Source: a virus
Taxonomy: Duplodnaviria; Heunggongvirae; Uroviricota; Caudoviricetes
Virus record (IMG/VR): IMGVR_UViG_2870479586_000001
Coordinates: 1-58,638 of that record
Direction: 5' to 3' (one strand)
Length of the DNA stretch: 58,638 nucleotides
Shown here piece after piece: positions 51,101 through 54,100 of this stretch; the first letter of the stretch is position 1, and every line of letters starts with the position of its first letter. The position numbers were made by a program.

Positions 51101-54100
51101 GTCGTCTGCCAGTTCTGCCTCTTTCTCTTCACGGGCGATCTGCTGGTAGTGACGCGCCCAGCTCTGAGCCTCAAGACGATCCTGAATGTAATAAGCGTTC
51201 ATGGCTGAACTCCTGAAAATGGCTGTGAAAATATCGCCCGCGAAATGCCGGGCTGATTAGGAAAACAGGAAAGGAGATTAGTGATTCAGGCCGTTACCGC
51301 GTCCGTCGAGAAAAACTTCCACGAGCAAATCACGGGTATAAGTGCGTTCGATGCCGCGATGCAGATATACTGGCAACTTTCCCGGCGAGCCTGGCTAACC
51401 GGGACCAGAACGAACTGAACGAAATCCGCCGCCAGTGGGTTCTGGCTTTCCGGGAAAACGGGATCACCACAATGGAACAGGTGAGCGCCGGAGTGCGTGT
51501 CGCCCGTCGGCAGAATCGACCATTCCTGCCATCACCCGGGCAGTTTGTTGCCTGGTGCCGGGAAGAAGCATCCGTTACCGCCGGACTGCCAAACGCCAGC
51601 GAGCTGGTTGATATGGTTTACGAGTATTGCCGGAAGCGCGGGCTGTATCTGGATGCAGAGTCTTATCCGTGGAAATCAAACGCGCACTACTGGCTGGTTA
51701 CCAACCTGTATCAGAACATGCGGGCCAATGCGTTGACTGACGCGGAATTACGGCGCAAGGCTGCCGATGAACTGTCCTGTATGACCGCACGAATTAACCG
51801 TGGTGAGGCTATACCTGAACCAGTAAAACAACTTCCTGTCATGGGCGGTAGACCTCTAAATCGTGCACAGGCTCTGGCGAAGATCGCAGAAATCAAAGCT
51901 AAGTTCGGGCTGAAAGGAGCGATGAAATAGAGCTAAAGTATTAGCTTAAAAATAAAGTATACCTAGCGAATATAATCTAGGACTAGTTGTAACGCCCGAA
52001 ATGATTGATTGCGTGAGCAACAAAATTTTTCTTCCATTGTTGTGAAATCATTTAGCCATAAAGTTTATGCAGAGATTTTATTTTATTTTTGAGTTGATTT
52101 TTTTGTAACGAGCTGTATATTTCGCGCCTCTTGTCATACCAGTTATTTTTTTCATTATATTCATAACGTTGATTGAACTATGACCACTGTGAATAAAAAG
52201 TTAAAAAACTGCATCTGGCGCGATTACATGGTCGGTAATTGTTACCCAGATATTATCTCCAGTTTCTCTTTCTTTGATCCCAGCAAACAGTTTTGCATCA
52301 TCTGGTAATAAAGATGTTACGCAAACTTATGCCAGCGATGAGCATGCAAATAAAGTGGCCTCATTTGCAGCAAGTGCAGGTCAGAGCCTAGCAAATAATA
52401 ATGCAAGTAGTTTTGCTGTAAATACTTTATCAACTCAGGCGACAAAAGAGGTCGTCGACTGGTTGCAACAATATGGCAATGCGCGCATCAAGCTTAATGT
52501 CGATGATTCTTTTTCCTTGAAGGATTCATCATTCGACTTTTTATATCCATGGCTGGATACTCAGGATTATGTGCTATTCAGTCAGACATCACTACATCGT
52601 ACTGATGACCGAAATCAGACCAATATTGGTTTGGGGATTCGTCATTTCACTCCTGATAACGCAATGTTGGGTGCGAATGTTTTCTATGATTACGATTTAA
52701 GTCGCAGTCACTCTCGTGCAGGTTTTGGGGTTGAGTACTGGAGAGATTATTTCAGGCTTGGTGTAAATACCTATTTTGGTTTGTCTGACTGGAAGAACAG
52801 TCGGGATATTGATGATTATCTGGAAAGACCCGCAAATGGCTGGGATTTTTCTGCTGAAGGATGGCTACCTGCTTATCCGCAATTAGGGGCATCCATTCAG
52901 TTTGAAAAATATTATGGTAAAAATGTCGGGTTATTTGGAAGCGATAATCTTCAGGAAAACCCTTACGCAGTTACTGGGGGAATTTCTTATACACCAGTTC
53001 CTCTGATTAAGTTTTCTGCACAGCATAAGCAAGGACAGAGCAACGTTCACGATACAACCTTTGGTGTTGAGTTTAATTATCGCCCGGGCGTTTCCCTTGC
53101 TGAACAGCTTAGCAGTGACAATGTTGCTGTTATGCGAGAAGTCCAGAACCGGCGTTATGATTTTGTTGAACGAAATAACAACATTGTTCTGGAGTACAAG
53201 AAGAAGCATGCACTGAAAATCAGCTTACCAGAGTCTGTTCAGGGGAGGGGGAATCAATCATCCCTGTAACACTGACAATCAACAATGCTAGTGGTGGTAT
53301 CAAGTCTGTACAGTGGAATGATAGTGCATTCACTGCGGCTGGCGGTAAGATCAGTGGAAATGGCACATCATGGCAGATCACTTTACCGGCTTATAAAAGC
53401 GGAGATGTAAATTCGTGGAATGTTGGAGCCACAGTCCAGGATAACAGAGGCAATGTTTCCAACTATGCCGTTATGAATATCAGCGTTAATAATAGTGGTG
53501 TCTCGACAGCGGATTCATCTTTTACACTGGATGGAGATTCGTCGCCGACGATCTCTGCTGATAGCCAATCCACTTATCCGATAGTATTAAGCCTGAAAGA
53601 TAGTAACGGTAAGGCATTAACCGGACTGGCTGATGACATTGAAATGTCAGTGGAATTTACAGCAGATAGCAATAGTGCTCGACAGCGTGAAACGGTAACT
53701 GCTCCGTCATTAGGCGCGGTAGAGGAAATCTCTGCTGGGGTATATCACTCTGTTCTGACTGCTGGTTCGCAGGCTGGTACGGTACGTGTAACTGCAAAAG
53801 TTCAGGGAAAAACATTTACTCTCAGTATTAAGCAAACAGCAGCAACAGAACCTGATTCTGAGGTCAGTGCTGTTTTAACCGCTGCACCAGCAGAACAGGT
53901 AGTTGGTTACAATATCAATCTACAACTGGCAGTGAAGGATTCACAAGGAAATGCAATCACTGGTGATAACACTCTGAGCTTTTATGCTCTTAACCAGGCA
54001 GAAGGAGTCGAGTTTGGGACTGTAACGGAAAAAGACGGTGTCTATAGCGCGACAGTAACTTCAAAACGAGCTGGTAAGATTACTATCGGTGTTAAATCTG

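Follow-up and report, generated by a model that had tools for sequence, protein, structure and literature searches.

A probable internal deletion joining kil to P in a grounded lambdoid prophage remnant at thrW of Escherichia coli

Introduction

What brings the 3' end of a kil-position gene directly up against the inside of the replication gene P in a lambdoid prophage of Escherichia coli? The question is raised by the window, the whole 58,638-nt stretch of DNA analysed here, in which two lambdoid prophages appear as tandem occupants of thrW, namely an apparently complete prophage of about 41 kb (prophage A) and, to its right, a remnant of about 16 kb (remnant B). In an initial annotation, this juxtaposition had been described as a deletion joint that fuses the kil-position gene to the middle of P in the older of the two prophages, leaving a fixed remnant without its immunity region, O and the 5' part of P, which can neither replicate nor maintain repression and which retains Red recombination genes. 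The analysis described below indicates that a lambdoid prophage at thrW very probably underwent one internal deletion, of which the joint is the scar, closed by homology-independent joining, and that a grounded remnant was left. The review literature is said to cover such 'grounded' prophages of E. coli. Coordinates of the features discussed are collected in Table 1.

Table 1. Features of prophage A and remnant B bearing on the joint, with positions in the window.
Feature	Coordinates	Strand	Description
tRNA-Thr 3' part, duplicate (att core)	42534..42595	+	Boundary between prophage A (left) and remnant B (right); 46-nt exact repeat of 1399-1444
Prophage A segment equivalent to the loss in remnant B	6394..10878		4485 bp; from self-BLASTN coordinates, ORFs and Pfam
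exo (lambda exonuclease family)	49438..50118	-	Intact 226-codon ORF; Pfam YqaJ PF09588, E = 4.3e-30
bet (RecT-family single-strand annealing protein)	50115..50900	-	Intact 261-codon ORF; Pfam RecT PF03837, E = 2.7e-33
gam (host-nuclease inhibitor)	50906..51202	-	Intact 98-codon ORF; Pfam Gam PF06064, E = 3.4e-65, full length 1-98/98
kil / KilR-like septation-inhibitor gene, 3' fragment	51278..51367	-	Last 29 of 68 codons plus stop; translation equals the C-terminus of the 68-aa protein of the A3 prophage (L003)
Deletion joint	51367..51368		Blunt, without microhomology (0 bp), filler or an IS terminus; from three-way display and self-BLASTN breakpoints
P (helicase loader) pseudogene, 5'-truncated	51368..51930	+	Starts at the second base of codon 47; stop TAG 51928-51930
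IS3-family element	58255..58638	+	Cuts rusA at the right end of remnant B; homology to intact prophages stops at 58254; IS3 transposase annotated in sister genomes

Structure of the joint

The breakpoint was placed by a BLASTN search of the window against itself, which gives two adjoining segments. Positions 49284-51367 match prophage A at 4311-6393 (98.08% over 2084 bp, E = 0) and positions 51368-51920 match it at 10879-11431 (94.39% over 553 bp, E = 0), both matches being far beyond chance, and the homology switches exactly at 51367/51368. This is the very position at which the break had been placed before, and the pairwise alignment gives no continuous homology but two segments with a clean breakpoint between them; the partner position on the P side, earlier put at about 10895 in prophage A, is in fact 10879.

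The joint was also displayed three ways, the window being set beside the two parental sides, kil and P, of both prophage A and an intact relative, the prophage at icd in strain A3 (L003). At the crossover, the kil-side parent reads ...GATGCAGATA followed by AAGCCG..., the P-side parent reads ...CAGCCAGT followed by TACTGGCAAC..., and remnant B passes from ...GATGCAGATA straight into TACTGGCAAC.... The parental sequences share no bases there (GCAGATA/AAGCC against CCAGT/TACTGG, with the slash at the crossover), and the absence of microhomology, filler and IS ends holds against both of these independent parental references. The ends were joined bluntly at 51367/51368, and this single junction sequence suggests illegitimate, homology-independent end joining rather than a homologous, site-specific or IS-mediated event.

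A real deletion might instead have been made by an adjacent mobile element or by slipped mispairing between short direct repeats, and the locus has seen IS activity, as remnant B carries two IS3-family copies, its right end was removed at one of them, and a sister strain has an IS66 insertion. However, neither IS sequence nor an IS terminus is present at 51367/51368 or close to it, kil passes directly into P, and the parents have no bases in common at the crossover; both routes are very unlikely.

The two genes lie head to head, kil being read from the minus strand and P from the plus strand, and it is their truncated 5' ends that abut. Because they are on opposite strands, there is no gene fusion in the protein sense, and a hybrid ORF across the joint was rejected on this ground, so that what had been called a fusion is an abutment of two fragments. 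A single ORF spans the joint (51281-51418, plus strand, 45 aa); it runs antisense to kil, is not in the P frame and is taken as noise.

Truncated kil and P genes

On the kil side, the gene has lost its start codon and its first 39 codons, and 87 coding nucleotides plus the stop are left, slightly more than the 86 bp from 51282 that had been assigned to this gene, whose presence as a remnant is otherwise borne out. The full-length 68-aa protein of the A3 prophage matches phrog_294, 'Kil protein for bacterial septation inhibition' (E = 1.3e-37, residues 1-68), while its score against NCBIfam NF008465, 'FtsZ inhibitor protein', is 63.1 bits, under the curated cutoff of 92, and it has no Pfam match. 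By these profile comparisons, the product of the kil-position gene is Kil-like at the level of PHROG rather than as a KilR equivalog at the level of NCBIfam, and in remnant B no intact Kil/KilR-type ORF is found.

On the other side, the break falls at nucleotide 140 of the 702-nt P gene, that is, at codon 47 of 233 and about 20% into the gene; it is thus inside P, as had been reported, but not in its middle. The fragment, which lacks 139 nt (46 codons and 1 base), encodes residues 48-233 of lambda P, matches Pfam Phage_lambda_P PF06992 at profile positions 12-162 of 162 (E = 1.6e-56, 191 bits, cutoff 26), and aligns to residues 48-231 of lambda P in PDB 8V9T (E = 1.8e-117). In the domain limits given for lambda P, residues 1-47 comprise domain I and the start of domain II (PMC12661323), and remnant B has no complete P frame with its own start and this region. 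There is no in-frame ATG, GTG or TTG in the fragment before the Met at 51472, which corresponds to lambda P residue 82, and in sister genomes RefSeq labels the fragment 'incomplete; missing N-terminus'. Judged by its reading frame, it is a pseudogene fragment and not a functional member of the family.

The lethality of P for the host has been attributed to sequestration of DnaB (PMC3640518, PMC4926192), and an in-frame deletion of lambda P residues 9-86 has been shown to abolish both the initiation of replication and P-lethality (PMC3640518). Like this engineered lambda P delta-76, in which residues 9-86 are lost in frame, remnant B lacks the N-terminal part of P, in its case residues 1-47. 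Unlike P delta-76, the fragment keeps residues 48-86 but is also without a start codon, a ribosome-binding context and the region equivalent to lambda pR; with all three gone, it is probably not made. By analogy with the engineered deletion, activity would be unlikely even if translation began at Met82.

Content of the deleted block

Intact prophages of the type of remnant B were sought in 5426 complete E. coli genomes and two were inspected, the A3 prophage and the prophage in FDAARGOS_144 (L002). Both are colinear with remnant B on the two sides of the joint; the A3 prophage is 98.39% identical to it over 48509-51367 and 97.70% from 51368 onward. Between the points that match the joint, the A3 prophage carries 3496 bp and the FDAARGOS_144 prophage about 4307 bp (endpoints read by eye). 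In both, the intervening block comprises the 5' part of kil, a hypothetical gene, an S24/HTH cI-like repressor, a cro-like gene, a YdaT-like gene, O and P codons 1-46, which bears out the earlier statement that the immunity region, O and the 5' part of P are missing. The equivalent segment of prophage A contains the 5' part of kil, two ORFs (one with a SocA/Panacea domain), a cI-like repressor, cro-like and YdaT-like genes, O and P codons 1-46, with Pfam matches to Peptidase_S24 and HTH, YdaS/Cro-like, YdaT and Phage_rep_O.

One contiguous block of 3.5-4.5 kb, from kil codon 39 to P nucleotide 139, would therefore have been lost from remnant B, its size depending on which intact relative is taken as the yardstick and its endpoints being defined against relatives that are 94-98% identical rather than against the true ancestor. 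The lambda origin lies inside O. The lost block would have held the early control region (the leftward promoter, by analogy with lambda, and the cI-like, cro-like and YdaT-like genes) and O with its internal origin.

In prophage A, the SocA/Panacea ORF (7368-7934, minus strand; PF13274, E = 8.3e-21) lies between kil and the cI-like repressor, and directly downstream of it is a 127-aa ORF (6985-7368, minus strand) with a hydrophobic C-terminal part. By its domain content and arrangement, this pair looks like a Panacea-type toxin-antitoxin system in the immunity region. The region equivalent to 6985-7934 is gone from remnant B.

As lambdoid phages are highly mosaic, and as the block between kil and P varies in length and content among the three prophages compared, the joint might instead be a native module boundary of a lineage that never had an immunity and replication module here, module junctions being common in lambdoids. 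Such junctions fall between genes, however, whereas here both genes are cut inside their frames; kil is without its start and 39 codons, P has lost its own start along with 46 codons and offers no other start ahead of residue 82, and no replication or repressor gene is present elsewhere in the remnant. A native boundary would also be hard to reconcile with a juxtaposition found in so few genomes (see below), where thousands match one side only. Because both border genes are cut within their frames and close relatives have the full block, a deletion is preferred, and a module boundary is judged very unlikely.

Distribution of the joint and extent of the remnant

Exactly seven of the 5426 complete E. 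coli genomes, isolates from human, dog, soil and water, contain the 160 bp centred on the joint at 100% identity, while thousands of the genomes match one side of the joint only. The locus identity of the carriers to the window is 99-100%, and the gene tables of three of them were inspected. Two sister genomes have the same order, running from proA and tRNA-Thr through an integrase, IS3, a PACE transporter, a LysR gene, early genes, exo, bet, gam, the truncated P, an inverse autotransporter, an alpha/beta hydrolase, ybcN, ninE, ybcO and a fragment of rusA to a second IS3, after which come the chromosomal yagU, ykgJ and ecp operon. The third, SC455 (L005), was isolated from soil and is about 1% different from the window over the locus; it shares the joint and both IS3 positions, with the remnant adjoining yagU, and the sequence inspected there stops short of the tRNA.

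No cI, cro, O, Q, lysis or structural gene is present between the integrase and the right IS3 in the gene tables of these three carriers. Remnant B thus combines gene losses with a flanking integrase and att site, as in a defective (cryptic) lambdoid prophage. It lacks a repressor, cro, O with its origin, a functional P and an intact kil, and its decay is larger than had been seen before, as nothing of the late region remains and an IS3 cuts rusA; it is because of this cut that Q, the lysis genes and the structural genes are missing. With no repressor, O or origin listed anywhere in the remnant, the earlier view that it cannot replicate or maintain repression is upheld, and it would presumably be unable to be induced, to be packaged or to confer immunity either. 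Two early genes toxic to the host, kil (an FtsZ inhibitor) and P (which sequesters DnaB), would likewise be disabled.

Across the carriers, the identical joint and the same two IS3 positions form a shared scar of the kind expected from vertical inheritance, and because SC455, although about 1% different, has both, the deletion predates the divergence of the carriers. The proposed course of events is that the deletion, together with an IS3-associated loss of everything past rusA, would have produced the grounded remnant of about 16 kb, which would then have been inherited by a small group of E. coli lineages. The word 'fixed', used of the remnant before, is accordingly kept only within this small set.

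Several other features of the locus were noted. The two IS3-family copies (43929-44302 and 58255-58638) bracket most of remnant B, and the same insertions are present in the other carriers inspected. The inverse-autotransporter (intimin/invasin-like) gene at 52274-55728 on the plus strand is phage cargo, lying between P and the nin genes. The window has it as two separate ORFs (331 and 751 aa), with one repeat of about 357 bp fewer than in the A3 prophage; the gene is interrupted by IS66 in 2015C-4136CT1, and is intact in SC455 and in the intact prophages. In SC455, a further tyrosine-recombinase gene (L005 positions 80-1357) lies to the left of the remnant's own integrase, which hints that a different element, not prophage A, may also have integrated beside the remnant in that strain.

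Tandem occupancy of thrW

The duplicated 3' part of tRNA-Thr at 42534, with similarity running about 15 nt past the 46-nt repeat (1399-1460 against 42534-42595), is what a second integration on the tRNA side would be expected to leave, and because of this duplication prophage A and remnant B are read as tandem occupants of thrW. At the DNA level, identity between their integrase genes is only about 69%. The two sister genomes, in which thrW is followed directly by the integrase and the rest of the remnant through gam and the truncated P, match the window from 42534 onward and have no prophage A. As the same remnant stands next to thrW without prophage A, remnant B was in place before it, in agreement with its earlier designation as the older prophage, and prophage A would have integrated later on the tRNA side of the remnant in the strain of the window. 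The right end of prophage A joined to remnant B is found in no record among the complete E. coli assemblies.

Since the two prophages of the window share 2.1 kb at 98% and 0.55 kb at 94%, and such repeats can confuse assemblers, the joint might be thought a chimeric mis-join between them; this is hardly credible, as the sequence round the joint is identical in seven independently sequenced complete genomes, two of which, the sister genomes, have no prophage A, and as the P fragment differs from P of prophage A at 5.6% of bases and is thus not a copy of it. Recombination between the tandem prophages in the strain of the window, for which their direct orientation and the long, highly similar segments on both sides of the joint would provide, is no more credible, because the joint is present in genomes without prophage A, homologous exchange would give colinear hybrids rather than a juxtaposition of kil and P, and the flanks in remnant B are not identical to those of prophage A (98.1% and 94.4%). 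Nothing was found that contradicts the deletion itself.

The 2.1-kb direct repeat (4311-6393 and 49284-51367, 98% identical and about 45 kb apart) is of interest for another reason, as homologous exchange between its copies could delete the right part of prophage A or move the scar or the cargo of remnant B into prophage A. No sign of recent conversion between the copies was seen, and they are not identical.

The Red genes

To the left of the joint, exo, bet and gam are all without internal stops and all match their families (Table 1), so that a lambda Red module is present in full. The exo product (WP_000186848.1) is common to a sister genome whose locus is 100% identical and to the intact prophage of strain A3, and the bet product (WP_000100847.1) is common to a sister genome and the intact prophage of FDAARGOS_144.

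The region upstream of exo-bet-gam in the intact relatives, which is the location of pL in lambda, is deleted in remnant B, and the native promoter of these genes would have been lost with the deleted block. The sole promoter-like match upstream on the minus strand (52109-52080, 9/12) is no better than in shuffled sequence, and a scan for a replacement promoter for gam-bet-exo or for the truncated P gave matches at the level of shuffled sequence. The earlier statement that Red genes are retained would thus be true of coding capacity only: the ORFs are intact, but with the region equivalent to lambda pL deleted, their expression may have been lost.

Comparison of the window with SC455 gives an uneven picture. 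Positions 48600-51200, against positions 7730-10330 of the SC455 sequence, differ by about 2.6%, with a synonymous divergence of 0.12 in bet, while 42561-46989 and 51200-52200 differ by only 0.1-0.4%, with a single difference in 561 bases of the P fragment. The divergent patch thus covers the Red stretch and stops at the joint. The best explanation is that, in one lineage, recombination with another lambdoid prophage replaced the Red segment, and the patch would fit continued exchange of exo-bet-gam with other lambdoid prophages. As a sign of purifying selection, the pN/pS of exo, bet and gam was considered and rejected, since the differences are patchy and imply import from functional prophages; because of this import, low pN/pS in the Red genes is uninformative on selection in situ.

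It might be proposed that the endpoints of the deletion were favoured, since one event removes the induction switch and disables kil and P while sparing exo-bet-gam, which might be kept, from a new promoter, as a recombination module usable by the host or able to rescue phages. This is considered unlikely, and the sequence as it stands is compatible both with a selected and with a neutral deletion.

Discussion

Remnant B resembles the cryptic lambdoid prophages DLP12, Rac, Qin and e14 of E. coli K-12, in that it lies by a tRNA gene or att site, has lost regulatory, replication and late genes via internal deletions and IS elements, and has kept some early genes and cargo. Its nin-region genes ybcN-ninE-ybcO-rusA even bear DLP12 gene names in the RefSeq annotation. 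DLP12 occupies the argU site. Remnant B differs from it in its position at thrW, its integrase and its set of deletions, and, unlike the K-12 cryptic prophages compared, it has a complete exo-bet-gam module and carries as cargo the inverse autotransporter, the alpha/beta hydrolase and a PACE transporter/LysR pair.

The closest counterparts are intact lambdoid prophages that likewise have an inverse autotransporter between P and the nin genes, found for example at icd in strain A3, in FDAARGOS_144 and in ST131 strains. These are 97.7-98.4% identical to remnant B over exo-bet-gam-kil 3' and over P 3'-inverse autotransporter-hydrolase-ybcN-ninE-ybcO-rusA, in the same order and orientation, but in them kil and P are full length, the repressor/cro/YdaT block, O, Q and the lysis and tail genes are retained, and the integrase and attachment site are different.

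As textbook prophage decay, remnant B is of an already known kind and holds nothing surprising to a specialist, and its joint leaves the current understanding of prophage decay unchanged. Its value lies first in annotation, as the second prophage of the window is to be described as a non-inducible, non-replicating remnant of about 16 kb with a P pseudogene, older than the complete prophage beside it. In addition, prophage A and remnant B could readily recombine through the 2.1 kb that they share at 98% in direct orientation. Finally, the joint would provide a base-resolved example of how a lambdoid prophage is grounded, in which a single homology-independent deletion removes the immunity and replication core.
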